A DNA stretch of 62,872 nt, counting the filler, from Dugesia japonica (lineage: Eukaryota): NCBI GenBank assembly GCA_001938525.1. It is 6 parts of 6 records of this genome, joined end to end, with 100 filler letters (N's around TTAATTAATTAA, not from the genome) between each part and the next. Parts side by side here need not be neighbours in the genome. Positions count along the whole stretch, not along the records: positions 32,006 to 41,247 come from MQRL01578216.1; 5 more parts are not named here. One strand, 5' to 3'. The position numbers were made by a program, and so were the translations under genes. The notes under the pieces are model-generated. The model searched no databases. It was not told where the DNA came from and worked only from the letters and a program-made list of their open reading frames with translations. Positions 2,706 through 56,300 of the stretch are shown here, piece by piece. Every line of letters starts with the position of its first letter. The stretch's first letter is position 1.

Positions 2706-2709
2706 GCAT

Positions 2710-13816: not shown

Positions 13817-13891
13817 AATGGACAGATAAAATAAACGATACTAAAAATATTTCTGTCTTAATCTTGATAAAGTTTTTTTTGCAGATAGATG

Positions 13892-15423: not shown

Positions 15424-17035
15424 TTAAGTCGCACCATTGTATGCTTCACAGTTCGATGTTTCATTTTTAATTTTTTTAATCTCTTCATGATAATGCTTAA
15501 ATAATAGAAATTTGGCACAAATTGGAGAAAAACCAACAAGTAACTGGCATGTCCATCCACCGACCTTGAATATACTATAGGTTGACAATAATTGTGTAAA
15601 TACCAATTTTGCCAAGACACAAATAACATATATACCAGCTAAACCTGATATAAATACTCCAAACGCACTGAATTTTCCCCAAATTCTCTTTGCTACATTC
15701 TTGGCAGCCTCTTTAAAATGTTCTGGCACGAACAATAAGTTATAATTAAGATGGATCTTATTTCGTTGATATACTGTTCTGATTATTTCTGATATACCCC
15801 TTTCTCTCGTTTGTAGAAACCACATCATTTTTCTAGTTTGCTCATAAAACTTTTGCTGTATAAATTCCTGATTTGGCTAATTCGTCCATAGTTTTAAATT
15901 CCATTCTGCTTGTCAAAGAGTTTATATCTAAAATTTATACTTGTTTTTGTTGGTTATTTCCTATCAGGCAAGGAAATTCAATGCTTGTTAATTTCATATA
16001 GTGGTGACATTGACGAATTACATACTGCTTCTTGTGGTTTCACATTTTTCTTTAGAAACATATGGATCACTGGACTCATGAATCTCAGTTTCCTTTCGTA
16101 AACAACTGATAACTATACTGTACACTGATTAAAGTTTGCTAATGACACTTCTGCTGGTGCGCATTGATAGCTATATATCGCCTCTCCCATGATTCTTCCG
16201 AATAATCATTTCTCCATTAACATTATAACGATAAGATCTAGATTCACTATCAATATCGCTAATCAATTTTTGATTATTTCTGTACTCAATTTATCCTCAT
16301 TCATGACGATCTCATGATACATTTACTCCATTTGAATAACAAACTATGATAGGCGTAATCAACCTTGTTATTTAAATAGTTTATTATTTTTATATCTTGG
16401 GCATTCAATTGTGTAGATTTAGGGATATTCATTTTTCCCAAATACAAGCCTTTATATTTTGTTTCATACACAAGATTGGAACATTTCATTGTGAAACCTT
16501 TCTTGATAAATCGAATTGCATACTTGGGGTTGGTTGATACTAATACAATTAGAGTATTCTCTTCTCCAATTCCCTCTTTTAGTATGCTGTTGACCATGCT
16601 TCCTACTTGCTTTTATTTAAATTTTTTACTCTTTGATTTTCCATTAATCTGGATCCCTTTTCTTCTGTTTTCTGTCAAGTTCCATTTATTTGTGTGAAAG
16701 ATAGCTTTTTTAATAATATCAATACACAAAAATCACGTTTTTCATCATATAGAAGTGTAGTGAACTCCGTTCGACAGGTAGAAAACTTTGAATTGCAATT
16801 CGGATTTCCAACCATCTTTCCTGTTTCCACTTCGAATATTCCTTCATATTCTCGCAATTCAACTGTATAATCCTCTAAATCCACTACTCGATTTACCAAA
16901 TTATTCTGCCTGGTTTTTGTTTGACCAGTACAATNNNNNNNNNNNNNNNNNNNNNNNNNNNNNNNNNNNNNNNNNNNCAGTATCTTTCCTACTTCTGCTG
17001 TTAACGTCACTTCGCTGTTGACTTTTAATTTTTCT
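15424..17035 (-). pseudogene. Chuvirus-type (class III, gB-like) envelope glycoprotein, N-terminally deleted
   Basis: C.....ETKYKGLYL; YLNNKVDYAYH; GEAIYSYQCAPAEV....QC...L.V.....FMSPV....CNS.MSPLYEI; C-terminal IWGKFSAFGVFISGLAGIYVICVLAKLVF...GW. The order and spacing of these motifs match chuvirus-G-like proteins as I recall them. Confidence 0.8.
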
Positions 17036-18160
17036 GTTCAAAATGCGATCTGTTTTTGGTAGCGTTGACTCATCTATTTCATTTTCTAAATCAATTTTAT
17101 TGATTATATTTTCTAATACTTTAGCTCTAATTTCTCTAGCAACCGTTTCATTCTCTGGTTCAACATTAAATTTATTTTTAGGTCTGCCTCTCTTTTCAAT
17201 CTTTGGTTGATCTGTCTCCCTCAGAGCTCAAGATGTTGATGCTTTTGCATTTATTCTTGAATTTTGAACTGGACAGGGATCTAATTCTTCTTTCACAAAT
17301 ATTTTTCGTGCTACATTTAGTACATTATGTATTACATTCAAATCCATGTGAGGCTCATACTCCTCATTATTATTTTCAACTACTGTGACTGAATTTCGCT
17401 GAATAAACTCCGCTATAACTTCTGGAAACATCAACATTGTCCAGTGATAATCAGCTCCTTCTACTTTCAATACTGATACTATAGTCGTCTGTGAAAGCAA
17501 ACAACCAACATCTACTAAATACTCGACATCATCAACTTGTTTTCCCCAAATCACTATCAAACAAGTGCTTGGAAATCTAATTCCAATATCCTTTCTCCAT
17601 TTTAACACCTTTTGGTAACACGAATATCTTTTGATTTCAGGTATCTCCTGATTTGGTTTTCTTATTTCTACTAAGAAATGACTCTGCTTTTTTCGGTCTT
17701 GTCTAATTGCTTCACAATTTTTCCGTATCAACATTCAGATTTCGTTTTGGTAACTACTTGGCGTACCAGCCAGAGGTAGTAATAATGGTACTATTTCCTT
17801 TAATATATCCGTTAGAATGTTCAAAGACAATGTCCAACTCAAAATATCTTTAATATTTTCATTGTTTCTTGGATTGGATTGGATTTCTCTTTCCAACCAT
17901 TATGGAATAGCCTACGTTTCATGAAGCTGGTCTAATTCCGTATGTTCTTTAGCAAATACACTATCTGGGCTAATAGTGGCTACCTCCGCCACTTTCTCAT
18001 TAGCCTGCAATTCTGTTTTCACATTTAGCAGTATGCCGCATAACAGAATCATTTTTTCTCTATCTAATATTTCATTGAACAAATATATTTCAAATTCTCT
18101 GCGTTTCACTCTCTTTAAATGTGTTGTTAATCCAAACGGATTTATATTTATTCAAAACTA
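17036..18160 (-). pseudogene. Unknown ORF upstream of the glycoprotein, probably part of the same retroelement polyprotein
   Basis: ORFs 17912-18109 and 17228-17734 link up through isolated stops and run to ~17036; same strand and similar base composition as G/pol; no family recognised. Confidence 0.5.
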
Positions 18161-18874
18161 ACAAAAAATACCTTTTTAATTTGACTGCTAACTTAGCAAA
18201 ATTTAGCTTTTAAACTGCTTATTAGCTCAACAGCTATTTTAGGTTTAAAATTTGAAGTCTGATTGAACTGATTTTGCAATCAGTAAATATACTTTTCTCA
18301 ATATTGAAATTACAGAATTAATAAATTACTGCATAATTTTTTATGCTAATATTANTAATTTTTCTAGAAAAGAATAAATTAATATTTCTGTCCATTATAT
18401 TGCGTTCCTAATTTTAGGAAATTAAAATATGAAATACAATAATTTTAAATAATTCAAAACTAATTGTTACTAATTTTAGTAATTTATAAATTTAACCTTT
18501 ATTTTAATACAAATATCTTTATTTATTTAAACAAATTTTTAATAAATTTGTTAAATTGTTAGGCTTTTGGATNNNNNNNNNNNNNNNNNNNNNNNNNNNN
18601 NNNNNNNNNNNNNNNNNNNNNNNNNNNNNNNNNNNNNNNNNNNNNNNNNNNNNNNNNNNNNNNNNNNNNNNNNNNNNNNNNNNNNNNNNNNNNNNNNNNN
18701 NNNNNNNNNNNNNNNNNNNNNNNNNNNNNNNNNNNNNNNNNNNNNNNNNNNNNNNNNNNNNNNNNNNNNNNNNNNNNNNNNNNNNNNNNNNNNNNNNNNN
18801 NNNNNNNNNNNNNNNNTTTAATGATCCAATAAAGCAAAGGATATTTGATACAACATTGTTCGTTATTTACTAGA

Positions 18875-19926
18875 TCACTCGTCCAACTCAATCACCTCGC
18901 TAGTTTTCTCCTTCGGCATATCTGATATTGAGTTTGATACCCGTGTCAATGTACGCACCGTTGCGATCAGCATGGTTTCTCTGTCGGCGTAGGATTTTAT
19001 TATGTCNNNNNNNNNNNGACATGTCTGAGCCAGTGCTAGTTCTCGCTCTTTTAGTAGGCCCACCTTTCCTCGGAGTTGAGTATTCTTGTGTTGTAAATCG
19101 ATGATATCACCCCTTAGCTTTTTCTGCAGAGAAATCCACTTAGCTTGGATGTCGATCTTTGATCCTTCCGTGAGCTTTTTCACTTCCGTCACTTTAAATA
19201 CGAAATAACTTGTAATCAATTTATTAAAAAAATTTTTAATAGTAAATAAAACATTCATGGTATCATTCCACCAGATCATTATAAATCGAAATCATTAGCA
19301 TTTAATATGAAATTTATCTTTAGTTGAAAACAAATCTTTAACGAATCTATATTAGGGATAACACACGAATCAGTTGATGGTTACACTAATTTCATCTGCT
19401 TCGTCTAAAGGCACGAGCACTTGCTGAAGTACAGACTCTATCTTACAGGCTAATCTTTCTGAAAGTTTGCTATATTCTTCCGCTTCGCGTTGTGTCGTTC
19501 TCATGGACTGAATGACCGTCTGCTGCTGCTTGGCGAGTTCTGTGGTTCGGACTTACAATTATATTAGTTCTTTCTCACGCTCCTGTTGCCATCTGGTAAT
19601 CTCTGTCACTTGCAGTTGATGTTGACTTTCTTGCTGCTCAACGCGTGTCTGCAGAGCATTAATCCGCTTTAGTTGTTCAGCGAACTGATGTCGTTGTCAC
19701 AATATTTCCTCTCCCATCTCAGAGATTTCGTCCTCCTTGATTCGCAGCTGTGTCTGAGTGATCCACCAGGGTTCGACGTCGGTTCCCTCAGTAGTAACCG
19801 AATCCCACATCGGTGGCATATTGTTACATGGTGTTGTCTCGAATGCATATCCGGCCGGTGCNNNNNNNNNNNNNNNNNNNNNNNNNNNNNNNNNNNNNNN
19901 NNNNNNNNNNNNNNNNNNNNNNGCAT
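18875..19926 (-). pseudogene. Two tandem coiled-coil ORF remnants (~19926-19370 and ~19200-18875)
   Basis: Heptad Q/E/L-rich translation (QFAEQLKRINALQTRVEQQESQHQLQ...; LQKKLRGDIIDLQHKNTQLRGKVGLLKE); stops of CAA>TAA type; higher GC than the flanks. Confidence 0.5.
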
Positions 19927-21055
19927 GTCACTTCCTCCTATACGAGTATTTCCTATTCTAATACATCAAAATATATTTATTCAATTTATTTTAATTTTAA
20001 ATGAAAATGAATGTTACCATGAGCTCGGAACGATCAACAATCACTCGTCATTACCGATGAGATTGGGCTCTCGAATTCCAATAATAATTCATAATCAATT
20101 TAATTCATATACTGTAACTGTTTAATCACATTTGGATTTATATTATTTCTGGAGATACCCATTTTCCTCCCAATGACGAATGATCCATAGGCCAGCCCGG
20201 AAAATTCTCCAATTTTATTTGAATAAATCTGTAAAACAAATAAAGTCGTTTTCTAAAGTAATAATATTTTTATAAACATTAGTATTCAGTAAAATTTATA
20301 CAATCAAAAACATATAATAGGAAGTTAGGTCGGATTCAACCACCCCACTTTGAATCTAGACACTCGACTATCTCTCATCTCGTAATCATTATCATTAATA
20401 TTATTTCTCACACATCGTTATCATCTTTTACAATTATCATCTTCCCTTGTCACCCTTTTATAAATCGATGTCATCATATTCGTCATCTTTCATAAATTAT
20501 TATCATATTTCATAATCATNNNNNNNNNNNNNNNNNNNNNNNNNNNNNNNNNNNNNNNNNNNNNNNNNNNNNNNNNNNNNNNNNNNNNNNNNNNNNNNNN
20601 NNNNNNNNNNNNNNNNNNNNNNNNNNNNNNNNNNNNNNNNNNNNNNNNNNNNNNNNNNNNNNNNNNNNNNNNNNNNNNNNNNNNNNNNNNNNNNNNNNNN
20701 NNNNNNNNNNNNNNNNNNNNNNNNNNNNNNNNNNNNNNNNNNNNNNNNNNNNNNNNNNNNNNNNNNNNNNNNNNNNNNNNNNNNNNNNNNNNNNNNNNNN
20801 NNNNNNNNNNNNNNNNNNNNNNNNNNNNATCAATATCACCTTTCATTTTTCATAATCACTATCAATAATATCATCTCTCCGAAATTTGGTATCATCATTC
20901 ATAATTATCGTCTTTCATAATAACTATCATCTTTCTTATCATTATCTTATTTCATNNNNNNNNNNNNNNNNNNNNNNNNNNNNNNNNNNNNNNNNNNNNT
21001 TAATTAATTAANNNNNNNNNNNNNNNNNNNNNNNNNNNNNNNNNNNNNNNNNNNN

Positions 21056-21817
21056 AATAGTCTTCTTCAGGAAAAGTTTTATTACAAGTTACTTATTTAT
21101 ACTTTTTTCTGATCTTGAAAGAAGAATAATAAATGAAATGCATTCAGATTGTGAAAGAAAATCCAAACTGGTGAAAGAAGAATATTGGGACTACGTTCTG
21201 GAAGAAGAGTTGATTGATATCGAGAGAGTTTTATACCTTTTCGAAAACGAATTTGAAATAATATCATTGTGTGAAATCAATCCATGTTTATACTGGGTAA
21301 TGCGGGACATTATTTTAGAAAGATTTCCATGAATTTAGTTTGCTGTATTGATGTAAATTTTATTGATGTTGAATAAATTTTTTATAACTTGATTTGTTTC
21401 TTTTGTTTTATTAAAAAAAAAAATTTTAAAAACAAAAAGATTTTAAAAAAAATAAATAAATAAAACTAAAAAACAAATTTCAAAAAAATAAAAAAAAAGA
21501 TCAAAAATAAAAAAAATAAATAAAATAAATAAATAAAAAAAATAAAAATTTAAAAAAAAAGATAAAAAAAAATAAAAATAAAAAAAAATAAACTATAAAA
21601 TTATTTCTTTTTTAAATGGACTTAGAAAAATTTTCGATAATATTTATGACTCATGATCTATGAATTTCGTTTTCTCTTAAAATGGACTAAGAAAAATTTT
21701 CGAAAAAAAAATTTTAAAAAAAATTTTGCATGAGTCATCGACTTTGTCTTAATCATTGATGACTCATCATCATGAGTCATCCCCTTTGATCCTACAATAC
21801 ACTACTATCTATCTACT
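21056..21817 (+). mobile_element. Polinton/Maverick terminal region with a small acidic ORF (21138-21332)
   Basis: Ends ...ACACTACTATCTATCTACT (reverse complement AGTAGATAGATAGTAGT, the AG-initiated short-repeat terminus typical of Polintons); clustered GACTCAT/ATGAGTC motifs and an A-rich spacer. Confidence 0.6.
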
Positions 21818-22639
21818 GTAATTATATTTTAACTGTTCAATATAACTACTTAACATCGTAATTTATTCTATAGTTTATTATTTATATTGCACAATAATAG
21901 TTTTGTTTTTGATAATAATGTATTCAGAATGGTAAATGTAATGAAATAATTCGTATGATGATGAAAGATGTATCAAATTTGATGACTTCTAGAGTAATGA
22001 AAGACAGTTTATATGGTCAAATTTGAGATCTAAGTGTGCCTATATATTAACGTTTCGGTTCAGTCAGCTGAAAAATGTTTGAAAATTCATTCTCATTTGA
22101 TTGTGCAAATAACTGTTAATTAAATTATCATGATATTTAGTTGCTTGTTAAAGATCAAACTTTCTATGTAACAATAGTGTCATTTCCTACATCAATTTTG
22201 TATTAATTAAATCAATTCATTAATTTTAATTTATTTAATAAATTTCATTGAAAAGATTTTATTATTACTTGTTAATCAAATCTTTCCAATTTTTCATCAT
22301 TTGTTTTATCAATTATTTGTTTCAGATATTAATTAATTAATTTGGTTTGAATTAATTAACAGTTCAATTATTTATTTTATCTAAGCTATTATTTTTTATC
22401 AAATATAAAAGAACACATTTCGGATTTGATTTTTTCGCAAATTTGATATCATTTTTTTTTGAGAAACGTAAATCCTGAATTTATATGTAGTGAGAAAGCA
22501 GTAGGAATAAATACAGTTTACTAAACTCTTATTTCCTAAGATTGTGAGAATTCAGTAACATAGATGTAGACAGATATTTGCAAATCTCTCCGCGAAGAAC
22601 AAAGTGAATCTTTATGTAACAGTGTTGATAGTGTGTCTT

Positions 22640-23460
22640 ATTTAAATCAATAATATTCAAATATCTTGCACCAATCAAATTGTCTAGTATTTCCTCTACT
22701 TTGGTCATCGGAAATGCCTATCTTTCTGTGATTGCATTCAGGCTTTTAAAATCTAGACATAATCTAACTGTTTTCCTATATTTTTTCCATACACATATTA
22801 ACGGAGTGTTCCATTGCAAATTACACTTCAAAATAATGCCATTGTCAAACAAATTCTTGTTAGCTTCGTCGATCCTATTTTCTAAATGCATTGGTTGTCT
22901 CCATGGTTTCGTATTTATTGGTTCTTCATTTGTGATTATTTGATGTTCTGCCATTGTTTTTCTGCCAATATTTCAGTTGTCTACCATGAATATTCCTTTA
23001 TGAATCATTATAACTTTCTCTAAACTCTTGTTTAGCTAGTTAATCAATATTTTTATTGCTGTCTGTACTCTCTCTTTATCCGTTGTATTGCGTCCATACT
23101 TTACTTCTATATTAAAAAGATACCTTTATTATCCTCACATTTAGTCTGTTTAAGCAGTTAAAATACAAAATGTTTCTTTAATTCCATTTCTCTTATTAGG
23201 TCTGGATGTATCTGTTTCGACACAATGAATTGAATTGTTTTGCTTTTATTCTCGAATTCCACTTCTACCTTAATCGTATTTACTATTTTGAGTGAACCAT
23301 AATTGGCACATCTTAACTTGTCTTTTCTTTTTAATATATTGACTTTTCTCAATCTTTTCAAAGTTTTTGAACTCATAATATTAACTATTGCTTGTGTGTC
23401 TAACNNNNNNNNNNNNNNNNNNNNNNGTATTCCAACCGTTATACTTGGTTTATCTTGCAT
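22640..23460 (-). mobile_element. Ty3/Gypsy protease and RT N-terminus remnant (different subfamily)
   Basis: LDTQAIVNIMS protease motif; EHQIITNEEPI...WNTPLICV.KK...RLCLDFKSLNAIT. Confidence 0.85.
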
Positions 23461-25872
23461 CTTGTCATAACATATGAACCAAATTGTCCCAAAACCGACC
23501 GAAATAACCAGATTCTACTTCAAAGAATAATTTTTTACCGATTTCACCTAAATATTGTCCAAAATTACCCAAACTGACCAATCCCGAGGAAATATTCGAC
23601 CGAATTAATGAATAATTACTCTAAACCAAACAAAAATTAATCGTAATCGACCTATTCGAGGTAATTATTTTCCAAATTCACCTGAACCATACAAAATTCT
23701 ACCTCATTCAACCTCACCGAACAAATTTCCAACCAAAAAGCTTGAAAAATAATGCAGCTTAAAAACCCTAAAAGGTTTTCCTATCTATAAATCCAAAAAT
23801 TTGAAAATAATTCGCCAAACCTTTCATAATACGAATAAAATTTATATATTAGCACATAAATTTTGCTCGCCAAGTAAAATGCCTGGGAAATATCATACCA
23901 CTTAATCCTTTAAAAATCAAATTTCACAAATTAAATTAATCTAATAACAAAACTTATGTGCGAAAAACTTTCCCAACTAAATACAGGGAAAATTAAACTA
24001 AATTATCTAATATTACCTATAAGTTTCGTTACATCACTAGTCCTGGAGGGAGGCATTGTGTGTTGATGTTGACCGCCACTATCTCTCTACTACTCACCTT
24101 TCTATGAAATTATTTGAAATTAAAATTCTAGATAACAGAACATCTAATTTAGCATTTAGTTCAGGCAAGCTCTTCTTCAATGTAAGGATCAGAATTTTTT
24201 TGTCTTTTAATATTCAAATAGACTTGAAGTTTCATCAGAAATTTCCAAACCGACGATATCTTGAAATATTTCAAATATATCACCATGAAAGAACTTAAAG
24301 ATGATTAACAAAAAAAATATTATAAGTAAATGCAACTGTTTTANNNNNNNNNNNNNNNNNNNNNNNNNNNNNNNNNNNNNNNNNNNNNNAAGAAAAATAA
24401 TAAAATATGAACACTAAAAATAAATGATAAATACAAATTATTATTAACAAAGTGAACATAATAACAAGCCTGTATAATAATGTAAATAAAACAAATATAT
24501 TTTAATGAGAAGTTTGGATTGCTTCATTCCAACCAATTGGTTTATATTTACGGATATAAATGAGACAACTCAGATACAGTTCTCCAGTCGTATGTCATTT
24601 AACTTCGAACGGCTATCGCTTTTAATTATTTTCATTGTGAAAATTAATTGCTCACACTCATAAGTGATTTCAATAAGCGTAATTTTTTCATCCAAAAAAT
24701 TGAGAAAAATTAGTTTTCAATTGACATAATTGGTATTTAAATTTGAAAATACTTATTTTTATTATTAAAATAAAATTTAAAAATAAAAACCTTTTTTGAA
24801 TTTGAAAATATTTTCTGTGAGCCGGAGAAAAAAAATTGCCGGCTGCTTGTTATACATTCCCGCTTTAGACAATTAACATAAAATATCAGAATCAATAAAT
24901 TCGCAATGGAAAATATAGAATTTATCGAACTCACTAAACCGGACCAGGATTTCTTCGAAGAGGTATTTCTGCAAAAATCCACGAATCTTTTTTTAGTACA
25001 AATTAAATTTAAAACTAATTTATTCTTTTTTTAAACTTTAATATTTGATTCTAATATTAGATTGATTCTTTCATTCTTATATCATTATATTAATAGATTG
25101 TCCGCAGAACCAGTATTCATATAAGGAAATTTTTGGTGATTACTTAATTTTTAAACTTTTTTTTCTAAACACAACTCTAAACCTGACTATACATCGACTA
25201 TTAGTTTACTTATATTGGAAATTTAATATTAAATAATTAAAAAATTAAATTAATTCTGATTAAACTGTTGAGTAATATTTTTACTTAAAAATATTTGAAC
25301 GTATCATTTTTTCTTATTTAACAATTTAACTTTAGTCAAACAAATGAACTACATAAATTATGAGAAAAATTATTTCATGATGATCAAACAGAAGGATTAA
25401 ATTTTGAAAAAAAATAATACAAAATCTCCAAATGTTTAATTTCATCAAAAAAAATCCCTATGTGTATTATTTTCTGATAAATTAAATTGTAGGTGGTAAT
25501 TTCATCCAGTTTCATCGATACGTGTGTCAATACCACACGTAATAATTAGTCTGGAATATTTCAACGAATCAAAATAGCGACATTAATAAATAGAATATCG
25601 ATTAATTTCTGTCCTCATTATTTCATTAATTTTAGTCAAATCTGAAGTAGACAATATGTAGATTTATATGATTATCAATTATTTATAATTTATTTAATGG
25701 ATTATGTATTTTAAATGTATTTATAATCAATGAAATATCAATTTACTTAACTTTCACCAAATTTGGAAAGTGCATTTATTTCTAATAAAAGTTTAAAATA
25801 ATTATAAAAATAAAAAATTTAAATACCACTGTCCAAAATGTAAGTTGACTGTTTAATTANNNNNNNNNNNNN

Positions 25873-26391
25873 TAGTCAAAATATTCTTCCCTTATGTTGG
25901 TCCAAATTTTAGTTACAAATGTAAATTTATTTCAATTTATTATGCTTACCTTTGATATTTATAGTTTCTTTGTTTATTCGTATTTTTTATCCTTTTTCGA
26001 TTCTTAAAATGGATTATGTATTTGAACAAAGAAATTACATTAAGTTTTGCGTGAAAAATAAAATTAATGCTATGAAGAGGCATAAAGTAATGTAAAAATC
26101 ATTTATTGATCAATCACTTTCAAGAAAATCTGTATTCTTCAACATCAATAATTGAAAACAATCTCAAAGAAATTAAAAGCAAAGTAATGGCAATGGTAAT
26201 TTGATAGCTTTCTGTACATGTTGACATATAAACAGATTCGGTATACGTAAGTAAGTGGAAGTTAATGTCTATCCGTATCGCTATTTTGATTCGTTGAAAT
26301 ATTCCAGCCTTAATTATTACGTGTGGTATTGTCACACGTGTGATTAAAAATTTAATTCACGACTCATAAGATAAACAACAGGAAGTGTGAA
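25873..26391 (-). repeat. Inverted near-identical copy of 28112-28696 (a third partial copy lies at ~25519-25581)
   Basis: Direct reverse-complement match; ORF 26120-26335 mirrors 28168-28458; this copy lacks ~65 bp present at ~28369-28433. Confidence 0.9.
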
Positions 26392-27049
26392 TTATCACAT
26401 CTTTGACTCCAATTTTCACACTTTTATGTAAACAATGTACTTCGTCACCTAAGGAGTGAATTTTCACAGTTTTTTTGACCTTAAAAATTACTTTTATTTT
26501 TAATCGTAGTTTAATGTAAACAATTGATGTTTTTTTTGTTTAGTGCGTGGCGCATTTAGCATTAATACATGAAATTATTAATATTAATATTATTATTTAT
26601 ATGTTTTTATAGGTAGGAATTTTCACAATTTTGGTACCAATATTCACATCTAAATGCAAATAATAATTTTTTTATTGACATGTAAATTTTCTCACTTTAT
26701 TTTTTATTAATTATAAAATGTTTTCATAGGTGTGAACTTTCACATTTTAATACATCTTAATTTTTTAAAAGTGAGAAATTTATTGGAATTATCTTTGATA
26801 TTGTTGATTTTTATTGAATTAATGAATATACATATTTTCTTTATCCGGTACAATCAAACTTATAATCTAAAATTAAACCAATAATATTTATTATATTATA
26901 AATTATATGCATATTACCTATTACAATCAATTCTAAATCATCCAACCAGCAATTTACCAGTTTCTTTGTTTAATATTAGTGGTGGTAAAATGGGGGGAAA
27001 GGGCTCACCCCGCCCCCTCCAACCCATTTGAATAAGGCATATCATAGAT

Positions 27050-28110
27050 CAGTGGTGCTCAAGGTGGGGCGTATGCCCCACCAAGGGCCAATTTCATTTT
27101 TTATGGGGGCAAAGGGATATTTTTTGTTTAAAGGGGTTAATTCAGAATTAGTTATTAACATTGAATTTTATTTCAAATTTACATGTAATATATTTTAATC
27201 ACAATGCAAAAGTCCATTTCTAACGAATCTATAAAATTTATAGTCTATGATTCAATGGCTAATCAATCTATGCTGTTGTGTTTAAATGCGTCAAATTACA
27301 TTTTGTGTCGATTTGCTGATAGTTTAAAATTGGTGGTATTCACTGGTTACTAGTGTAAATTAAAACCTGATTTGACATTCTAAGTATCTACAATAATTGC
27401 TTCACAACTCTAAGACAATGGTATATTTTATTAAATTTCCATGAGTATTTTTTAGGTTTATTTCATTCAGAAATGAACTTGATGTCTAACAGCGATATAA
27501 TTACTGCGAGGAAAAAAAATTTCTTCAATATTTAGAGGAATACTTAAAATGGGGCTTCATACCGGCCAACCATGATAATCGTTTACCTTTCTGCCTTTTA
27601 TGCCAGCAATGGTTGTCTAATGAATCAATGAAAAACAATCGTCTTCAGGTGCATTTAATGGCGAAACATAGTGTATATGTAGATTCAGATTTACATTATT
27701 TCAAGTCTTTAAAGGATAAGTTTGAAAAGCGATCAACAATAAAGTCTCTGTTAACTGCACAAACTGTTTCGATCAGTCGTACTATTGAAGCCAGCTATGA
27801 AATTTCACTACTCATTATTAAATCTGTGAAAAATCATACCATAGAGGAGGAATAACTTAAACCGGCAATATCTGCATATGTTAAAACAGTTCTGGAAAAA
27901 GATGGCAGAGATGTGAAAGCCATGCTACTTAGTTATGATACTGTCAGAAGAAGAATAGATGAAATGAATGATGACATTGAAACACAACTTGTTGAAAAAC
28001 TGAAATCAAGAAATTTCTCGCTACAGCTGGATGAATCAACTGTAATGGATAGTGAGGCCATATTGCTAACTTATGTAAGATATATTGATAAAAATGATTT
28101 TGCTGAGGAA
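27050..28110 (+). mobile_element. hAT Buster/Charlie-type element: left end and transposase N-terminus
   Basis: Starts CAGTGGTGCTCAAGG; EEYLKWGF...PFCLLCQQWLSNESMK..RL..HL..KH (BED finger); TVRRRIDEM..DIE.QL...FSLQLDEST. Confidence 0.88.
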
Positions 28111-28716
28111 CTTCACACTTCCTGTTGTTTATCTTATGAGGCGTGAATTAAATTTTTAATCATACGTGTGTCAATACCACACGTAATAATTAAGGCTGGA
28201 ATATTTCAACGAATCAAAATAGCGATACGGATAGACATTAACTTCCACACACTTATGTATACCGAATCTGTTTATATGTCAACATCTACAGAAAGCTATC
28301 AAATTACCATTGCCATTACTTTGCTTTTAATTTCTTTGAGATTGTCTTCAATTATTGATGTTGAAGTACGACCAGAACGATGTGCATCTACTATCGACTC
28401 ACAATATTCTCTGATGAGCTTATGTTTCTTGAATACAGATTTTCTTGAAAGTGATTGATCAATAAATTATTTCTACATTACTTTATGCCTCTTCATAGCA
28501 TTAATTTTATTTTTCACGCAAAACGTAATGTAATTTCTTTGTTCAAATACATAATCCATTTTAAGAATCGAAAAAGGATAAAAAAAATACGAATAAACAA
28601 AGAAACTATAAATATCAAAGGTAAGCATAATAAATTGAAATAAATTTACATTTGTAACTAAAATTTNGACCAACATAAGGGAAGAATATTTTGACTACCG
28701 CACGAGCTTATAATTA

Positions 28717-33320: not shown

Positions 33321-33611
33321 TTATGCTATTGGAAGTATTATTGTTATAAAGCTACCATTTTGTTCGTACAATACCGTTTTCATCACTTTCTTATTCTTGT
33401 TATTTACAATTGATAACAAAGAATTTCTACGTTTTTCTAATACTTTTCTTTGCTCTTCGTTTAAAGTTACATTATCACTAGCAATATTTACAATAATCTC
33501 GAGTAAATCATCAATAACGAATGATGGAAATAATTGCAGAATTTTCATTCTCTTCATACTAGGAGAATGTATTAATGCTTTAAAGAATGATTTACTTCGT
33601 TCTAAATTCAT
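33321..33611 (-). CDS. Polinton/adintovirus-type small basic virion protein (GG|F-motif protein), likely decayed
   Basis: Pattern KAL..SP..R.KIL......I..L.EI..NI...NV.L...Q.K.L......L.........K..L.Q.G(S/G)F...ILP matches the small Polinton protein ending Q.GGFL..LLP. Confidence 0.55.
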   Translation of the reverse strand: MNLERSKSFFKALIHSPSMKRMKILQLFPSFVIDDLLEIIVNIASDNVTLNEEQRKVLEKRRNSLLSIVNNKNKKVMKTVLYEQNGSFITIILPIA

Positions 33612-34259
33612 CTTCTGTTTAAATAGATAAATAATACTAAGTTGTTTTTAATATTATCAATAAACATTAAATTAATAATCTTCCTGTTTCTTACGATACT
33701 TTTTACGTTATTTTACCTTATTTACCCTATTTTATATTATTTTACAGGATTAACTATATTTTTTCATATNNNNNNNNNNNNNNNNNNNNNNNNNNNNNNN
33801 NNNNNNNNNNNNNNNNNNNTTTGCCTGATTTCCTCATCTTTTGACTGATTTGCCCGATTTCCCCATATTTTGCTCGATTTTCCAATATTTTGTTCTGTTT
33901 TACCACAATTTACCCTATTTCCCCATATTTTTTTCACATTTAAGTAATAAGCTTTGAATATCAATAATGAGACTAGGTTTAATTTATTATATGATTACGA
34001 AACAAGATAAGCCTCTATTAATAGGTTATGGTTTATTTTATTTGATAAAGGATTAAGTCCAATACAATTTGAGATCAATATGGTTTCAACATGAAAATGA
34101 TAGGTTTATTTTGTGACAAATAGGTATTTCTTTTAATAAATTCCTTCACTTTTTGCCTTCATACTTGCTTGCTTCCTGATTCCTTGCGTGCACTTTGATT
34201 GTCATGGGTTTATTTATTTAATCGTTTATTTGCGAATCTAGCTTCACTATTTATAGTAT

Positions 34260-35139
34260 TGTTGGGTATCTAAATCAACAAAAGATTTTTATATGGTTCG
34301 ATAAACGGTTGGGTGTTATTAATTTTTGGTAAAGAAATTTTTGTGATAATGTTTATCAATGTATGTCAATGCAGTATTATATAAATGTAATATCTTAATC
34401 AAATTATAAATAGGGTAATATTTGTATCAATAATTAAAAACACACCTTTAAAGAAAGTAATATTTTTNATATATAACAAATATAAATTTGTATTATAACT
34501 ACAACTTATAGCGCTCAGATTAGCTTTAAAGTAGANAAGCCAATCAAAGAGATAGGTTCTCTAAATTAAAATTGTCTGACAATAAACTGACATACGTCAN
34601 TATTTATAGCAAAATTGACGTTAGGCCTTCATGCATTGACCTCGTGTTTATATAAAATTTTCCATAAAAATCATAATTGATTTATCAATTTACATAAAAA
34701 TAAATTATATTCAATAAAAATTTTATACACAAAATTTTCCATGATCATAAAATAAATTATATATCTTAATTGTTTATGTAATAAACTAATAGTCTAAATT
34801 GTTTATACAATAAAACCAATAGACTTTTGAATAATCCAAATTTTTCATGAAATATAATGTCACATTACAATATAATAAAATTGAATTCCAATAAAATATG
34901 ATATCACAATAAAATATAATGTCAATCCATTTTTAAATATAATGTTAGCAAATTTGAGTCAGCACATTTGATCCGCACATTTGAGTTGGATTGATTTTCA
35001 GGGATTGATATTTATTTGAGGACTTGAGCCAATAATTGATTTAGGAATTTGTCTCTGTTATGTTTGTTGTGTGCTGTATATATTTTGCTCTGCTATGTAT
35101 TGTGTGTTGCTTGTCTATTTTAATTATTAAACCTCAACA
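34260..35139 (-). repeat. 3' LTR (880 bp, TGTTG...CAACA) of the cargo-carrying retroelement
   Basis: Begins TGTTGAGG 4 nt after a polypurine tract; ends CCCAACA with no PBS; contains an ATTGG (CCAAT) box and a TATAAG box near 34500-34545. Confidence 0.82.
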
Positions 35140-36434
35140 AACGTTCCCTCTCTGAAAAAGATGCTCCGTCATCTTTGGGTAAACGCGAAATAGGGACATG
35201 CAATATCGAGATACGGTGAAAAGACATTACTGGAACAGGGTTCATTAAAGATACATGCCGGGAACTTGGCTTCTGGATATATGGGGGATGGGGAAACCGA
35301 AGAACTTCGGGAAAAGATATCTATATCTCCTGCTTTGGAATGACGGGTAAGTATTCTGGCAGGCTGGTGTCTTCTAGCTCAGCTTTCATCCGCAATTGCC
35401 TGTAATCTTTTATTGTTTTTTTCTATTTCCATTCTTGTTATTGTAGCGTGCGTATACATATAACTTAACGGGCCAAGTGATTTCGGGATAGATACGGTAT
35501 TTATGGTGATATACAGCGACCAAATTTTTGTATGTTCAGGTAAAAATTGGTATTGGAAATGTGCTGGGTTTTCATGATCGATTTCAATCAGATCTGTGGT
35601 TGTAATATATCCACTTACGCGAAACGGGGTACTATCTGGCGGGTTATTGAGAAATTGCATCTTTTGTTTCTCATTTAAAAATGTTCGATGGAATACGGCG
35701 GATTGGTACATAAAGGCAGTATTTTGTAGGATAGTATGATGCACTAAAAGTTTGAATTTTTCAGCATCTATGGTTTTTTGAGTGAACGTTTTCTCATATT
35801 GTAGTTTATCTAGTATCTTAATGTGGAACGTAAAATATGTTCTCTCAGTCTTCAATATTTTAATTAACTGGTGCTTCTGTTTTTTCGAAAACTGACCATA
35901 ACTAACTGCTCGAATATCGTTGTTAATTTGTTTCATTGACAAGGAGTCATGATGGATGAAGATGTCTTGAAATTTGCTGACCGGGTCCCAACAGTCAGGG
36001 ATATCTCTTTGCTCAATAAAAGGAGTGAGGTGGGCAAAACTCGTACTATTGTTATATGGCATTTTTATCATGAGGGTTAGGGAGACAATTTGTACAATAG
36101 AAGGTTTCTTAACGTAACAGAAGGTTACACGGCATAATTTAGTGTCATAGATTCTCTGGGATCGACACGAAGGACACGGTACATTATTGGAGTTGACTAT
36201 ATTAAACTATTCTGTTATTCAAGCAAAGCAAAAAAAGTGCCCACATAGTGCTATACGAGGTAAGATAGGTTGATCATAACATAGAGGGCATATAGGTTTA
36301 TCGGTGATAAGCAACGTAACTAGTGTAATATCTGACCAACAATAAGGGTTTATTAAGTTCCGGTATTTCTCATATAAAGTTATGCGTGCTGACTGTAATA
36401 AAAATAATTGTTGTGCTTAATAACTGGGATTCAT
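35120..36434 (-). pseudogene. Intronless RNF10/Mag2-like C3HC4 RING E3 ubiquitin ligase carried as retroelement cargo
   Basis: In frame upstream of ORF 35379-36071: W.DITLV......PICPLCYDQPILPRIALCGHFFCFA*ITE*F......PCPSCR (RING 36165-36290; the stops are single-base changes from Cys and Tyr codons), then L.LM.K; later FMYQSAVFHRTFLN and P.RVSGYI...QYQFLPEHT parallel the RNF10 YFYQAEDGQHMFLH and PEKISATV...RYLSHLP blocks; a frameshifted tail runs to 35120. Confidence 0.8.
35144..35153 (-). other. Polypurine tract
   Basis: AGAGAGGGAA just upstream of the LTR start. Confidence 0.7.
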
Positions 36435-36520
36435 TCTAAAANAAATACAATATTAATGATAGGGTTAGAGAGTGATACTATAATAACAATAGATAAATAC
36501 AAATAATTTCTTTGTTTATG

Positions 36521-38672
36521 TCAATTATTGTTAATTGAAAGTGTAAGTGTGGCACCTTTTTCTGTGACAGCGATGGTGTTAAGCAAAACATTTTCAACAA
36601 AACATTTTAATGCCTTTTTATTATCCTTTTTTATGGTTCTTAATCTAATGCGTTTTCTTCCAAACTGTAACTGCATATCCTTACCCGATATTCGTTTCAA
36701 AGTTATTTTTGCTTTATTACTATTACCATCAAACTTATCTATTTTTAGAGCTTTATTTAAATTGATTGTGTCCGTACTAGGTTCGTATATATCAATTTGT
36801 GGTTCCGGACCTAGATCATCACTGTCGCTATCTATTTGATATGGTATCCCCTCACAATCTCCTTTCACCTGATCCTATCTGAGGTCTTCTACCTCTTTAC
36901 CTTACCAATGCTCAGTTTCACTTTCAGACTCCTTTTGTTTTCTCGTTTGTTCTGGAATTTCTTCATCCCCAGATGCATCCATATCTGTTTGTATCCCTTT
37001 GGGATTTTGTCGCATCATATCCTCAATTAATCTCTGCTGTTCACCAGCATCATTATGTGGTTTAAGCTCCTCGGGTAAGTCTTCCTCGTCCCACTCTATA
37101 TTTGTATCATCACTCATAGTAAATTGACTATCTGCACTTTTATTTGTCTCTTCTCCATCACTTTCCATATCAGAATCTAGTATCCATATTACACTCTCTG
37201 GTTTCTCCTTCTCTCTAATCAAAACCTCTTGCAGTATTGGTACATCATTTCCTACACCTTGTATAATTGGGTCCTTTCCAGGATATATAGAATCTTGCCA
37301 TGCTTGTTGAGTAATCATTTGCTTATGCGTAATTTTTATAAATGTTATTTGTTTCGCCGTTGATTCATGCGCTTTTTCTCTCGCCGTTTTCAAGATCTCT
37401 CTAATGACCCTATCTTATCTTATGGGTTTAAATACTGCTTTCATAATGTTGATCAATTTTAACTTTTTTATATTTGGAGTATACGTTTTACGTCATCTGT
37501 CTTCCACAAGATCTCTGATCCCAACAACATGCCTGTGGTCGATATGTAAACTTGTTAGCTTATTTCCTTATTCAAAGCGACTAGTATTTTTCCGTACAAT
37601 AGCTGCCGTGCTTTCAGAATTGTGGGATACGCATCTTTACATTTCCTTATCCTTTCATGGGTATACCATGTACTTTGCGTGTCGAAATGCTTTATCCTTT
37701 CTCGTGGACATAGGGTTTCATCCAATATAATCTCTCCCTTATTATTAAACATCGTCAACTCTACCACTTGCAAATTAAAATATGAATCCTTAACTGTTAT
37801 TATATCCACATATACTATTAATTGCTCTATATCGACTTCTGTTAAGATTGCATATTTGAGGAATGATGTATGGTTAATCAGGTTTATATAATTTATCGCA
37901 CAATGCCCTTTTATAGCAGTGTACGTAGGGAAAGGTATAGGAATACGATCATGATAAATTAACTCTACGCAAAGTACGGCTGAAATATCTTGGTTTACTT
38001 TTTGACTTTTATTTGGTTTACTCCCGGATCTATTTTTCCTTCCAATATCAGTGTGTTGTTTTCCAGCATATGTATATCTCTTTTTTTGTATGAGAATTTA
38101 ATAGGAGTTTTTGTAACATGTAGTCTAATCTCTTTAAGTACTCGTTTGTTGTTTAATACTGCTTCCTGTGGATCTTCTTCTATTTCTATATATCCTATTA
38201 ATTGTTGTAGTGAATATCTCCAAGCTTTTTGAAAGCGTATCATGATGACGTCTTTATCAAAAGTGTTGTTTTTTAAGACATTCGGGATTGTATTTACACC
38301 GTTAAATACTTCTATCCTAGGTTCACTATCTTTATCTTTGAACACAAAACTTTGTATATGGTTGTAAAAATGCGCGACACCTTTTGTGACTAAGGATGAG
38401 GAAGAAGGAATGTTTGCTGAGTATGTAGATTTGTTGTGTATTGTTTGTGTTGATTCGCTATTTTTGTTATCTTTCTTTGTTAGGTTATGTTCTGCTTGTT
38501 TATCTTGCTGTGTTTTCTTTATGTTACTATCTGATTTTGTTATATGTGTAATGTGCTGTTTTGCCTGCATTGTGTACTTTGTAAATGAATGGTATTTTGT
38601 GATCTGTCTATTATATATTCTATTGTATTCATTGATTTGACTTGATTCTGCTATCTTTGTTTGAAATGTTAT
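36521..38672 (-). pseudogene. ~715-codon cargo protein with a central ISG20/REXO4-like DEDDh exonuclease fold and an acidic region
   Basis: ORFs 37995-38570, 37555-37809, 36902-37393 and 36521-36868 join via two frameshifts and isolated stops; IVYVDII.V...QVVELTMFNNKGEIILDETLCP...FDTQ......I......TI.KARQLLYGKILVAL...L.IDH....IRD follows the REX4/ISG20 layout. Confidence 0.7.
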
Positions 38673-38809
38673 TTCTAAAATAATGCAATAATTAATTTCT
38701 GATTTTAAGGACTGACTATTCCTATATACTGCTACATCTACTAGTAGCTCATTATATAAATATATATATAATATAGATTATTTTCTTTTTTGAATTTTTT
38801 GCAGGGTGT

Positions 38810-39420
38810 TCAGACCAATATCCATTGGACATAATTTGGAATTTGTGGGGTATTACGACGCCGATAACGCTGCCTCTTTCACCTATATCGCTTATGCATT
38901 TGAATTAATGTAATTATGAAAGTGAGGAGGAAGAATAATGTAATCATACCTAATATTGAAAATGGGTGATGTAATATTTTTATGTCAAATGATCTTACTG
39001 TTGTTGTAACCCACATCTGCAGAATTTTATGCCGTAATTGCTGATAATCTAACTTCATGCTACTATTCAAAGTTTTTAGATCTTTTTCCAGATTTACTTT
39101 TCTTGTCATTATGGCATTACCATATACTGGTGTATTATGAGGAATAGTTGTTTTTGTTTGTGGTTTATTCAACTTTCCTTGTTTTGTCAGAATAGTCATA
39201 TACTGTGTCTTTATTTGTGACTTTGTTGGAGGGATAGTTGTTTTTGATTGTGGCTTAGTTGTAGTCAACTTTCTTTGTTTTGTTAGAATAGTCATATATT
39301 GTGTCTTTATTAGCGATTTTGTTGCGCTTAACTTCTCTTGTTCTCGTTTCTTAGGCAGTGTAGTAAATATATGCTGTTCTACTACTCCGTATCTACCTAT
39401 TCGTACCCATATCCGGAGTT
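38810..39420 (-). pseudogene. Single-pass membrane protein with a T/K/Q-rich repeat stalk (cargo ORF; annotated ORF 38879-39295)
   Basis: Tandem 90/96-bp repeats at 39141-39326; TM segment ILGMITLFFLLTFIITLIQM followed by basic HKRYR*KRQRYRRR. Confidence 0.55.
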
Positions 39421-40329
39421 TATATTCAGTGTTAGCTTAGCTGAATTAAAAGTCAGATCAATAATTGGAATTTAATTAATTTCAAAGAGTTTCTCTTTTT
39501 CTTAAAGAGTTTCTAAAAAGCATTTTAAATACTTTATTTTATGATTTATGTAAATATTGTAATAATATAATTGATGACATGGCGCACTCCTGCGACGTTG
39601 GCTTCAAAGTCCCGCTTAGGCCAGCTCTACACCAGCCCAATATCTTATTTATAATTATTTAAAATCATCTATTATTCGCAACCTCACAATATTTTCCATG
39701 CAGATTTCTTATTCTCATTTTGTTTTATTTTCCAAATTTTTTATTCTGGCTTTATTAATTAGCTAAATTTAAGTTTATTTGTTGCAATTTTAAACTTATT
39801 TGAAAATGATCAAACCNNNNNNNNNNNNNNNNNNNNNNNNNNNNNNNNNNNNNNNNNNNNNNNNNNNNNNNNNNNNNNATAAAGTTGTATTTTAAATTAC
39901 ATTGTTTTGAATATTTGTATCAAGGATTTCTGATGAAACACTAAAAAAATTAGAATTTTCGATAATAAAATTAGGACTGATTGAAATTTTGAAAATTTTC
40001 TAATCTTTAAAANTTTTTGTTGTAACATCCAATTATGTATTTTATATAAAAATAACTTTAACTGAATTTTTTCTAATTTAAAAAATTTGCTTGAATCGAA
40101 ATTTTATTACTGAAATTTGAAATGTTTACTTTTTTTTATAAATTTAATTTAATAATTATATCTTATTTTATTAAAAATTACAATAATAATATGAATTTTG
40201 TATTTATTGAATTGTTTTAATTTAATTTAAATTTGAGAAAATTTAATTTATTTAATTTATTATTAAATTTATTATAATAATAAAACAATTTCATTAAGAC
40301 CTTGTTTAAAAAACGTCAGAGTAATAGTA

Positions 40330-41247
40330 TTATGAACTATTTTGAGTTCAAACGTGTTCATACACCTACACTTAATGCAACAGCTGAATCAGCAACTGAT
40401 ATGCTAGTGTGCGAAAGATCAGTAGAAGTAGCTCAACTGCCATTGGTTGTTAAAATAATGGAATCGACCGAGACATCGTGATGAAGTTGATCAATCACTT
40501 TCAACAACCATTCGAATAATCCATCCCAACGATATTGTAAATTATGTCAATGTAAAGGTACCAAACGAGAAGAAATCGATATTTTAAACAACATCAAAAC
40601 ATTCTTTTGCATTTTTCCAATTGTTAAATTTGCTTTTATATAGTTGACCTAATGGCTGCCGACTTATGCCAGCTCCATCCTGAGTAAGCAAAACACAGTA
40701 TTTACAAAATGCCCCCTGCTCCAAATCAGAGAATGCCAACCATTTCCACAAAGAAAACCAATAATATTTAAAACGTAAATTTTTGCGACCTACCGCAAAT
40801 TCATAACTGCATATCCAATATAACAAAATTGATTCAGATATGTGTAACAAAATGTATCGAAAGGCACAATTCTGTATCGGCATTCTTGGAAATTCAAGAT
40901 GCTGTTTTTTCTGCCTGGGATGATATAAAATAGTGAACTGATAGAAATACATCATCACAAGCCACGCAGCCTCTATGCACCATTAAGCAAACAGATTTCA
41001 ACATTGATCTGCAGTGTACAGCTTAAGTATTTAACTATAGCAAACAACTGTGTAAAGAACTTCAAATGATAGACCTTGATNTTGTAGAAGCCTTGAAATC
41101 AGTAGAAGACATCACGGCAGAGGTGCAACTTTTGAGAATAAAAGCAGATTCTGAATTTATAAAGTTGTATGGTGCTGTATCTGAAGTTGCAGAACAACAT
41201 GATTTTTCATTAAAACGACGAAGAATAACTGCCAAACAAACTAAACG
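40330..41247. mobile_element. Rearranged hAT (ZMYM1/TTF-zinc-finger type) transposase remnant
   Basis: Minus strand WFSLWKWLAFSDLEQGAFCKYC...FNNWKNAKE; plus strand IERHNSV.AF and LR..ADSEF.KLY...RR. Confidence 0.7.
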
Positions 41248-54428: not shown

Positions 54429-56300
54429 CAGTCAAACTTGTCTATAAGAAACACTAGAATTGACAAAATAGAACTTGTTCGCTAAAGAGATATAAGAAAC
54501 AATTATGTAAGAATTTTTATTATCCAATGAAATTACAATAAGGTTTTACCTCCTAATTATGTAGTCAAGCATAGTAAGACTTTGTGAATTTCTCTCCGAC
54601 TACAATTCATCTTTGACTTTGTATATTATGTTCAATTTTTCTGGAATATTTTTCAGAAAAATTTTTTCTAATTTTTGAATTGACAAATATGCATCATATT
54701 GAGTTATATCGTCATTTTCAGAGGTCAAATTCTGTACTGGCTCATTTAAAAAGTCACTATCAACTGACTCTAAAATTTCCGTATTAATTTTTGAAATGAA
54801 GTCATCATCGTCATATTCCAATGGATCATATGGCGGAAAGTCATTCTGATCTCTGTTACTAATACTTAGCTCTGTATAATCGATCTGTGCGTTTTTGATA
54901 AAATGGTTGAAGGAATTAATAATTACCTCAGTAGAAACATTGTCCCATGCTTGTATTGTTAAATGAACTGCGTCTATCATTTTAACATTTTTAACTAACA
55001 ATTCGTAATCAGTATTTGTGCTTTCAGATTCAAAAATTAAATTTCGGGACAGAATCATTTTATAAGGCTGCTTAAAAAACCAAATTATAACTTGATCTAA
55101 TGCCAGAATTTCGGAAGAATGCTTTGGTGGTATGTACAATATATCAATATTGGAAAACTTAATCCACACAGGATGGACTGGTGCATTAGCCATAATCAAA
55201 AGAATTTTCCTTTGGTCTTTAATTAAAGATTGATTGAATGTTTTCAACCAATTACAAAAAATATCTAAAGTCATCCAGGATTTTTTTTTGAATAAACGTA
55301 CTTTAAACCCAATTTCTGAAAATCAAGATTTTTGAATCCACGTGGGTTTCTCGCGGACCCTATCATTGACGGATTCGAATTTTCATATATTTTTTTATAT
55401 TTAACGTGAAAAAAATATATTTACGCAAAATAATATAGTTAATTTTTCTATTGATAATCGTCCAATGGTTCTGTCATCATTTCCTATAGTGAGAGTTCTG
55501 CTTGGAGTACATTTATAAAATAAGCCTGTTTCATCACAGTTGTAAACATTCCGAGGTTCATATTCTAATAACTTTTTACAAAATAAATCTTTGAAATTAC
55601 AAATTGTTGTTTAATCTACTAGGGATTCCTCGCCAACAATTGCTTTGCTAACAGTATTATGACGCTTTTTAAAGGACATAAGCCAACGAGAAGATGCCGT
55701 AAAAGACTGTATTTGAAAAATACCGGCTAATCTAAGAGCCATAGCTCTCACAATATCATCAGTTACAGTAATGTGTTTATTGAGTTTCATATTAAATCAC
55801 TCCAACAGCTTGGAATCAATTTCTTAATTTCTTCAAATTTATTTGCTTTGATTTGTAATCATTTTCTCATTTTTCAAAATCTTGTTAATGACTGCAAGAG
55901 GCATTTTAAACTTGCTGCTCAATCGTCTTTGTGTATACATAGGATGACATCCAAAAAAATTAATTACATCTAACTTTTCTTCAATAAAATATGCTCTCCT
56001 TTTAATTTCTGACCTTTTATTCATTAGAAAATTTAGAATTAATAAAGTAATTTTAAAAAATGTAATAAAATTGTTTTATGAAAACAAAGTATGTTTCTTA
56101 TACAATTCTAATTTCTATTAAAATGTATACATTTTTTCATAAAATCGTGTTCACTGTTCGTAACAAGCAATGTTTTTTAAAAATTTCAAATTTCTACCGT
56201 TTAGTATATATGTTTTAAAATTTAATTATAATAATTGTTCCTTAAAAGATTTGTCTCTTATATACAATGTTTCTTATATACAATCAACATCTTAAAATTA
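54429..56300 (-). mobile_element. Tigger/pogo (CENP-B-like) transposon with a decayed transposase (54600-56024)
   Basis: EEKLDVI HTH; FTASSRWL.SFKKRH.....IVGES; YNCDETGLFYK; WMTL.IF..WL; LLIM.NAP.H; TA|CAGTC terminus at 54429; the other end is approximate. Confidence 0.88.

Follow-up and report, generated by a model that had tools for sequence, protein, structure and literature searches.

RNF10/Mag2 is the E3 ligase of initiation ribosome quality control and of 18S non-functional rRNA decay. In the available text of two reports it acts on uS3/uS5 (PMC11604940, PMC12008924), the host enzyme carrying out RING-dependent monoubiquitination of uS3 and freeing stalled 40S subunits (PMC11604940). 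Host RNF10 is repressed by uORFs and its overexpression reduces 40S levels, as the accessible part of PMC12008924 has it, and Sindbis virus is described as unaffected by RNF10 loss in the accessible part of a preprint (bioRxiv 10.64898/2026.01.29.701737). Host-gene capture by large retroelements and viral damping of ribosome quality control are both already known. Planarian Burro elements carry ubiquitin and apoptosis modules as cargo, and the portion of the review consulted lists MATH, BIR, ankyrin, BCL2, Ubi2/SUMO, midasin-like and IAP RING cargo, with no RNF10 and no exonuclease in that portion (PMC6431247). Exonucleases and TM proteins are among the ORF3 products of rotifer LTR elements, in which such ORFs are typically spliced (PMC5408684, available text), and herpesvirus deubiquitinases attenuate ribosome quality control (PMC10721647, available text). 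Among the papers listed for RNF10 with retrotransposons or viruses and for retroelement cargo, in which Burro was represented by a review and a secondary account, we found no RNF10 as element cargo; the primary Burro descriptions might annotate such an ORF.

The locus described here, from the planarian Dugesia japonica, shares with RNF10/Mag2 the spacing of its RING and, in the same order, the Trp block before the RING, the strands after it, the helical hairpin, the FYQ C-terminal domain and the long helix. It differs in that the encoded protein (the window protein) is about half the length, lacks the long N-terminus and its NHLLNF-type motif, and has a basic residue after the RING, and in that the gene has no introns, is multicopy and is broken. 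With the Burro giant Gypsy elements it shares an AT-rich host and ubiquitin-linked cargo, a Burro-style env fragment lying elsewhere in the window (PMC6431247, in part); however, Burro1 B-IAP has an IAP-type RING (as cited in PMC13465017, in part), whereas the RING here is of the RNF10 type and has no BIR. Host-captured extra 3' ORFs, 3' exonucleases, small TM proteins and splicing recall the ORF3s of bdelloid rotifer LTR retrotransposons and Terminons, although the rotifer exonucleases are DEDDy and RING is mentioned 0 times in the available text of PMC5408684. EBV BPLF1 is likewise a parasite-encoded ubiquitin-system enzyme aimed at host machinery, but, unlike a captured quality-control ligase, it strips ubiquitin from ribosomes (PMC10721647, available text). 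What appears to be new is a derived RNF10 in a repeat family, i.e., a variant of known cargo capture, with a predicted function.

A compact RNF10-like reading frame

The window, i.e., the whole stretch of 62,872 nucleotides that was analysed, carries the following features of this frame.

35130..36434, minus strand: compact RNF10/Mag2-derived E3 ligase frame of 435 codons, with in-frame stops at codons 6, 72, 76, 352 and 422
36291..36425, minus strand: N-terminal RNF10 block (helix, strand, conserved Trp33), directly before the RING; found by hhalign and by N-flank shuffles (0/500)
36165..36290, minus strand: C3HC4 RING, residues 49-90 (Pfam zf-C3HC4, E 4.4e-5)
35721..36164, minus strand: post-RING strands and helical hairpin, collinear with RNF10, the host's acidic linker being mostly missing
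35382..35720, minus strand: RNF10 C-terminal domain (FYQ...P...LP motifs) and long helix, from profile, alignment and a model built on the RNF10 alignment
35130..35378, minus strand: likely coding tail after the codon-352 stop, with collinear motifs, few stops (P 0.03) and DNA-run depth about 10 times that of the rest of the ORF

Read from 36434 to 35130 with X at the stops, the frame showed no frameshift and closed on a double stop at 35129-35124; its five internal stops compare with about 27 expected by chance (P 1e-7). The N-terminal block retains W33 and V39, which are invariant in RNF10 alignment A1. The original prediction had placed a RING at 36165-36290, in frame with ORF 35379-36071 and interrupted by point stops only, and the Pfam C3HC4 match at 36290-36165 on the minus strand, within 435 codons free of frameshifts, agrees with it on each count. 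The RING had also been described as missed by the ORF track. Its last two ligands already lie within the stop-to-stop ORF 35379-36206. The codon-72 stop coincides with the sixth zinc-ligand position, the other seven of the eight ligands being present, so that the window copy is unable to make the RING protein and is, as judged from its sequence, dead as a ligase. An Arg directly follows the last RING Cys. The tail (residues 353-435) is the weakest part of the frame; it gave no match to the profile of compact relatives described below and an E value of 0.1 against the best of these, P0122, alone, and it is likely coding on the basis of its collinear motifs and few stops.

RNF10 ancestry and compact relatives

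RNF10/Mag2 reference sequences were gathered by scanning metagenome contigs with an RNF10-type motif (109 loci, 108 ORFs); when one of these sequences was searched against proteins, named RNF10s appeared among the best 120 of 1,122 matches. The window protein aligned to a 34-sequence RNF10/Mag2 profile over residues 33-223 at 39.7 bits, compared with 22.4 bits for the RING alone, and the RING alignment, over 33-124, had RNF10 spacing with one inserted residue. Shuffled sequences attained the observed score in 0 of 500 cases for both flanks together, 0 of 500 for the N flank and 14 of 500 for the C flank; the corresponding counts with an animal-weighted profile were 0, 0 and 34 of 500. By hhalign, RNF10 was matched at 97%, the match extending to the first residues of the window protein, and the C-terminal domain by itself was not detected. 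This domain, which is weak when compared directly, placed itself at residues 239-342 (2/300 shuffles, 0/81 window decoys) and was bridged by P0122, which scored 32.5 bits on the host domain profile and aligned to the window protein over 11-318.

The flanks added 18.6 bits in the window protein against a maximum of 14.2 among 92 non-redundant viral RING decoys. One of these 92 unrelated viral RINGs nevertheless reached a total of 40.2 on the RNF10 profile against 41.0 for the window protein, so that the total score alone is little proof. Host-RNF10 profiles alone detected the flanks of the RING-masked protein poorly (E 0.005-0.04), and identity to host RNF10s is about 14-20%. An unindexed phmmer search of the window protein against 1.84 billion proteins gave 100 matches, of which 91 reached 60 bits or more on an RNF10 profile built independently, a cut-off that was our own choice and that admits a few matches with little similarity outside the RING; the RNF10 C-terminal domain was found in 65 of the 100. 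Among 20 matches whose names were checked, four clusters were named RNF10 or RNF10-like and none bore the name of another RING family. A word-indexed protein search with the window protein, confined to lengths of 240-767, returned nothing, and no exact match of ten window ORFs was found in the protein collection. In the PDB, where no RNF10 structure was found, a sequence search with the window protein gave generic RINGs only. The viral contigs yielded no RNF10-type motif match and no relative of the RNF10-like ORF, of an exonuclease-like piece upstream of it or of the compact relative P0127.

The best phmmer match, P0122 (E 2e-26), is an intact protein of 386 aa that is as compact as the window protein and 27% identical to it over 11-318. 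Two further proteins, P0123 and P0127, are also intact and similarly compact, with source contigs of 2-7 kb; none of the three has an informative name. Against a profile of these three relatives, the window protein scored 121 bits, its RING-masked form 39.7 bits and residues 91-235 alone 30.8 bits. Pairwise identity among the four compact proteins is 20-28%, with the folded core, including the C-terminal domain, kept in order. All eight zinc ligands are retained in 3/3 intact relatives, which begin 49-54 residues ahead of the RING. Aligned with human, brachiopod and nemertean RNF10, the window protein is collinear; missing from it are some 170 residues at the N-terminus, the larger part of the acidic linker and a good deal of the tail. 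The three relatives similarly lack the long N-terminus and much of the linker, their RING-to-FYQ distance being 138-155 against a host median of 236. The NHLLNF-type motif was present in 106 of 147 full-length host-type proteins and in none of the four compact ones, which marks the latter as a derived form and not an ordinary RNF10 orthologue. A basic residue (Arg/Lys) follows the last RING Cys in 4/4 compact proteins, compared with 2 of 204 host-type proteins, many of which are near-redundant vertebrate sequences, and 0 of 103 metagenome ORFs. We take it that a basic residue at this position helps RINGs to activate E2~Ub. In the window copy, another residue takes the place of the conserved His in the C-domain motif.

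The frame is almost certainly RNF10-derived, and these comparisons make plain both its RNF10 ancestry and its compaction to the folded core. RNF10-like blocks outside the RING had been proposed at the outset, and a profile search had been expected to return RNF10/Mag2; the flank shuffles, the RING-masked score on the compact profile and the phmmer matches bear out both, and the similarity extends beyond a generic RING to RNF10-specific blocks on both of its sides.

The predicted fold of P0122 had a pLDDT of 80.9 and a pTM of 0.72, in a model that leans on the RNF10 alignment. The model of the window protein (pLDDT 57) showed the same order of elements and, having been built on that alignment too, is not independent evidence. 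Fold searches with both models recovered generic RINGs and helical hairpins only, and in BFVD the matches were to generic RINGs, with none attaining E 0.001. We found neither a Pfam family nor a solved structure for the RNF10 C-terminal domain (residues 112-323 of the P0122 model); the only fold match spanning it was the RB1CC1 Claw domain (7ea2_B; Z 8.2, rmsd 2.6, 78 aligned), which was tied with unrelated entries. Entamoeba invadens has an RNF10-like protein, P0128, that is naturally short (493 aa) and likewise begins immediately ahead of the RING, which shows that a host lineage has undergone compaction too. P0122, P0123 and P0127 could be fast-evolving host genes. In the trees, the four compact proteins grouped among long branches without a support star (SH-aLRT 87 and 93). 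With the window protein as the sole compact member, it fell among fungal-type sequences on a branch of 8.3. The compact group adjoined tapeworm RNF10 when 19 of 41 rows, other long branches included, were dropped, and Entamoeba when they were kept. Because of these long branches, the donor lineage cannot be named from trees.

A multicopy repeat family and its probable carrier

In each of three DNA runs, more than 2,300 contigs matched 34630-39730, most of them less than 95% alike, and near-identical contigs had a depth of about 5-12. Summed depth, which is no copy number, was 112-525 over most of the RNF10-like ORF, 2,150-3,310 over its tail and 20,000-28,000 at 38734-38904; tens of related copies are a fair reading of it. 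The stretch, which three DNA studies of a single organism contain, is multicopy and belongs to a dispersed repeat family. The 38734-38904 segment (about 170 bases), at roughly 50-100 times the summed depth of the RNF10-like ORF, covers the end of an upstream membrane-anchor-like ORF, and no special RNA fold was found in the two high-depth stretches (z 0.15 and 0.50).

Selection was assessed over 35960-36440 in contigs at least 80% alike, from 40 of 52 differences, 39 of them outside stop codons. Synonymous differences made up 25 of these 39 against 11.3 expected (omega ~0.23), which argues against a neutral retrocopy. Third positions accounted for 23 of the 39, and the synonymous bias was confined to the RNF10 frame and absent from the other two. 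Among differences that split copies or subfamilies, 18/23 were synonymous (omega ~0.11). Sites at which nearly all other depth differs from the window copy look neutral (7/16 synonymous, and 2/9 at nine further positions downstream). Two differences at zinc-ligand codons among copies were both synonymous. Most other depth differs from the window copy within codon 76, so that this stop is not family-wide; for codons 6 and 72 no difference was among those listed. With copy-splitting differences constrained and private ones neutral in appearance, the family was under purifying selection and the window copy decayed after insertion. The original prediction of long divergence under selection fits both these omega values and the low identity to host RNF10s, and a dN/dS near 1, as in a neutrally evolving retrocopy, was not what we observed.

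The surroundings of the frame carry the following marks and neighbours.

36436..36468, minus strand: 3' splice-site-like sequence (CTAAC resembling a branch point, T tract, AG) whose end lies two bases ahead of the ATG
35135..35153, minus strand: polypurine-tract-like run followed by TGTTG, likely the start of a 3' LTR, overlapping the last codons of the ORF
34630..35139, minus strand: repeated non-coding stretch, candidate 3' LTR, with depth above single copy down to 34630 and an end that is not fixed
36521..38777, minus strand: likely one long accessory ORF broken by frameshifts, the open frames handing over along the strand
37555..38097, minus strand: upstream ORF piece resembling RNase T/DEDDh exonucleases (Atlas 0.91, 166/256 features common, PF00929 on 52% of the cluster)
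38879..39436, minus strand: ORF containing a 96-bp duplication and, at its C-terminus, a hydrophobic stretch that looks by eye like a membrane anchor

The CTAAC..TTTTAG..ATG arrangement is the only one in the window. Purine runs with TGTTG occur at eight sites in 120,782 bases, one of which closes the RNF10-like frame, and in nine RNA reads of other copies the matching ends at 35133. Both the polypurine tract and the splice-like site were noticed after the fact. On one strand, the gene order of the fragment is membrane-anchor-like ORF, frameshifted accessory ORF and RNF10-like frame; this strand is A-rich (A 0.40, T 0.26), like the env-bearing fragment of the same window. The accessory ORF runs from an unassigned part through the exonuclease-like and acidic parts to an unassigned end. 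Pfam and other searches assigned no family to 36521-38777, neither Pfam nor PDB gave an RNase_T match for the piece at 37555-38097, and no family was found for ORF 38879-39436. The fragment runs out near 39700, in the neighbourhood of an assembly gap. A profile search of 36441-39500 revealed no gag-pol, RT, RNase H or integrase; the fragment of about 5 kb, whose 5' end is missing, had no detectable 5' LTR and no tRNA or Rfam match, and no second copy of the candidate LTR was found within the window. No Maverick/Polinton core genes (protein-primed polymerase, capsid, ATPase) or terminal inverted repeats were found in the ORFs scanned, and the RNF10-like frame and upstream ORFs contained no BIR, the RING being RNF10-type.

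Near the 5' end of the fragment, a short GC-rich stretch beginning TGG (39570-39650, minus strand) is possibly primer-binding-site-like, and sense-side RNA reads of related copies adjoin it. No RNA data set was listed as containing the stretch itself. In RNA run X9, 87 reads fell on the 5.1 kb, of which 71 were less than 90% alike. Runs X8 and X12 gave 0 reads on 481 bases, a span that counts as no test of expression.

The RNF10-like frame is very probably mobile-element cargo. Its carrier is probably an LTR retroelement of the Gypsy type, a reading that draws on the polypurine tract with TGTTG, the splice-acceptor-like site, the A-rich strand and the absence of introns; since no pol, 5' LTR or LTR partner is attached, we infer the carrier type from these marks. 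Together they suggest that the frame is the final accessory gene ahead of a 3' LTR, expressed from a spliced RNA. The earlier description of the frame as retroelement-borne is therefore upheld as regards carriage in a multicopy repeat (more than 2,300 contigs per run), but the LTR type is suggested at most, with no RT or integrase on the 5-kb fragment.

The window as a whole is AT-rich (GC 0.18-0.35 per 2 kb), gapped and full of transposon debris, which includes pieces of Gypsy RT and integrase, DDE transposases and a fusion glycoprotein of mononegaviral type. This glycoprotein belongs to a decayed fragment at 14900-19400 (minus strand), with Monjiviricetes-type matches at 15424-15876 (E 1.6e-15) and 16304-16612, preceded by a coiled-coil and a segment at 17231-17734 that looked ubiquitin-like by eye, in an order that recalls Burro ORF1; searches gave no confirmation of the ubiquitin-like segment. 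Within positions 1-14250 lie several remnants of a smaller Gypsy element, nested and in part inverted (zinc knuckle, RT 13478-13816, integrase 9329-9784). DNA transposon debris at 2296-2556, 27490-28143, 40600-41000 and 54600-55322 is IS1595/Merlin-like (Pfam), hAT-like (by eye) or DDE_1 (Pfam), and long inverted repeats span 25873-28697. A small ORF lies 1.5 kb downstream of the RNF10-like frame (33321-33647, minus strand); judged by eye from a motif, it resembles a Polinton/Maverick core protein, and it had no Pfam match.

Proposed function and alternative readings

The explanation that we favour, tentatively and at slightly less than an even balance, is that the window holds a dead copy of a compact RNF10-derived gene that ends a multicopy, likely LTR (Gypsy-type) element, and that intact members likely encode an active ubiquitin ligase, with 40S subunits (uS3/uS5) as its predicted target. 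Intact copies are predicted, with good confidence, to encode an active E3; that its substrate is still the 40S is a prediction on which the balance is even, the 14-20% identity, the replaced C-domain His and the missing NHLLNF-type motif making a new substrate possible. In this explanation, an RNF10 mRNA would have been captured long ago by the element and expressed from a spliced subgenomic RNA. The disordered host arms would have been lost, and the uORF brake would presumably have gone with the host 5' UTR. The compact protein would then be an unregulated RNF10, the simplest action given the element's own control and an intact RING, which might clear initiation-stalled 40S or lower the 40S pool, with a resulting shift in translation and stress signalling in element-expressing cells. 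The original prediction that the protein protects very long polyprotein mRNAs did not find support: no polyprotein is linked to the fragment, and extra RNF10 lowers 40S in the available text of PMC12008924, which makes clearing or depleting 40S a better fit to the known activity than protection.

A possible loss of the ribosomal target has to be set against this. An element-borne, active RNF10-derived ligase might, like many viral RING ligases, act on a factor of host defence or cell death, and the low identity to host RNF10, the loss of the N-terminal motif and tail, the basic residue gained by the RING and the apoptosis and ubiquitin modules of Burro elements (PMC6431247; Burro1 B-IAP as cited in PMC13465017; both in part) are in keeping with it. 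We regard it as unlikely, since four proteins that are only 20-28% identical have preserved the entire folded core in its order, RNF10-specific C-terminal domain included, and a ligase that had changed targets would more likely retain nothing but the RING. Retention of the substrate-side domains would also suit a decoy that sits at RNF10's site on the stalled 40S, blocks host RNF10 and spares ribosomes on element RNA; herpesvirus deubiquitinases, which damp ribosome quality control, indicate that damping can serve a parasite (PMC10721647, available text). There is, however, no sign of a crippled RING, with eight ligands intact in 3/3 relatives and both ligand-codon differences synonymous, and a decoy is quite improbable. 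Among the alternatives it is the nearest to the protection idea.

Other readings concern the carrier and the origin of the copies. The lack of pol on the fragment and the post hoc recognition of the polypurine tract and splice site would suit a DNA element (Maverick/Polinton, Helitron) or an expanded host gene family, and a DNA element might further be read from the by-eye Polinton-like ORF 1.5 kb downstream and from small RING proteins in adintoviruses (a BFVD match to a generic RING only). Against both stand the arrangement of all ORFs on one A-rich strand, as in the env-bearing fragment of the window, and the parting of other copies' reads at the TGTTG boundary; the hundredfold variation in depth along the fragment is as in element subfamilies and unlike a gene family. 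We consider such a carrier improbable. That a neutral processed pseudogene of host RNF10 was simply carried along in the repeat is scarcely credible: it would account for the absence of introns, the five stops and the neutral look of private changes, but not for an omega of ~0.11-0.23 among copies, the clean loss of disordered parts only or the existence of intact compact relatives.

Returning to the favoured reading, an element with an RNF10 copy would likely tamper with host ribosome quality control. In its fullest form, which is possible although rather doubtful, a giant LTR lineage would have captured RNF10, cut it down to some 350 core residues with a basic activating residue in the RING, and used it to ubiquitinate host ribosomes since a deep divergence. 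If this were true, a mobile element would encode its own ribosome-surveillance enzyme, and the compact proteins would map the minimal 40S-engaging core of RNF10, of which we found no solved structure. The natural, well-folding relatives of 319-445 aa offer a ready minimal RNF10 for structure and substrate work. If the 40S is still the substrate, the family would represent a new front of transposon-host conflict or mutualism, located at the ribosome.
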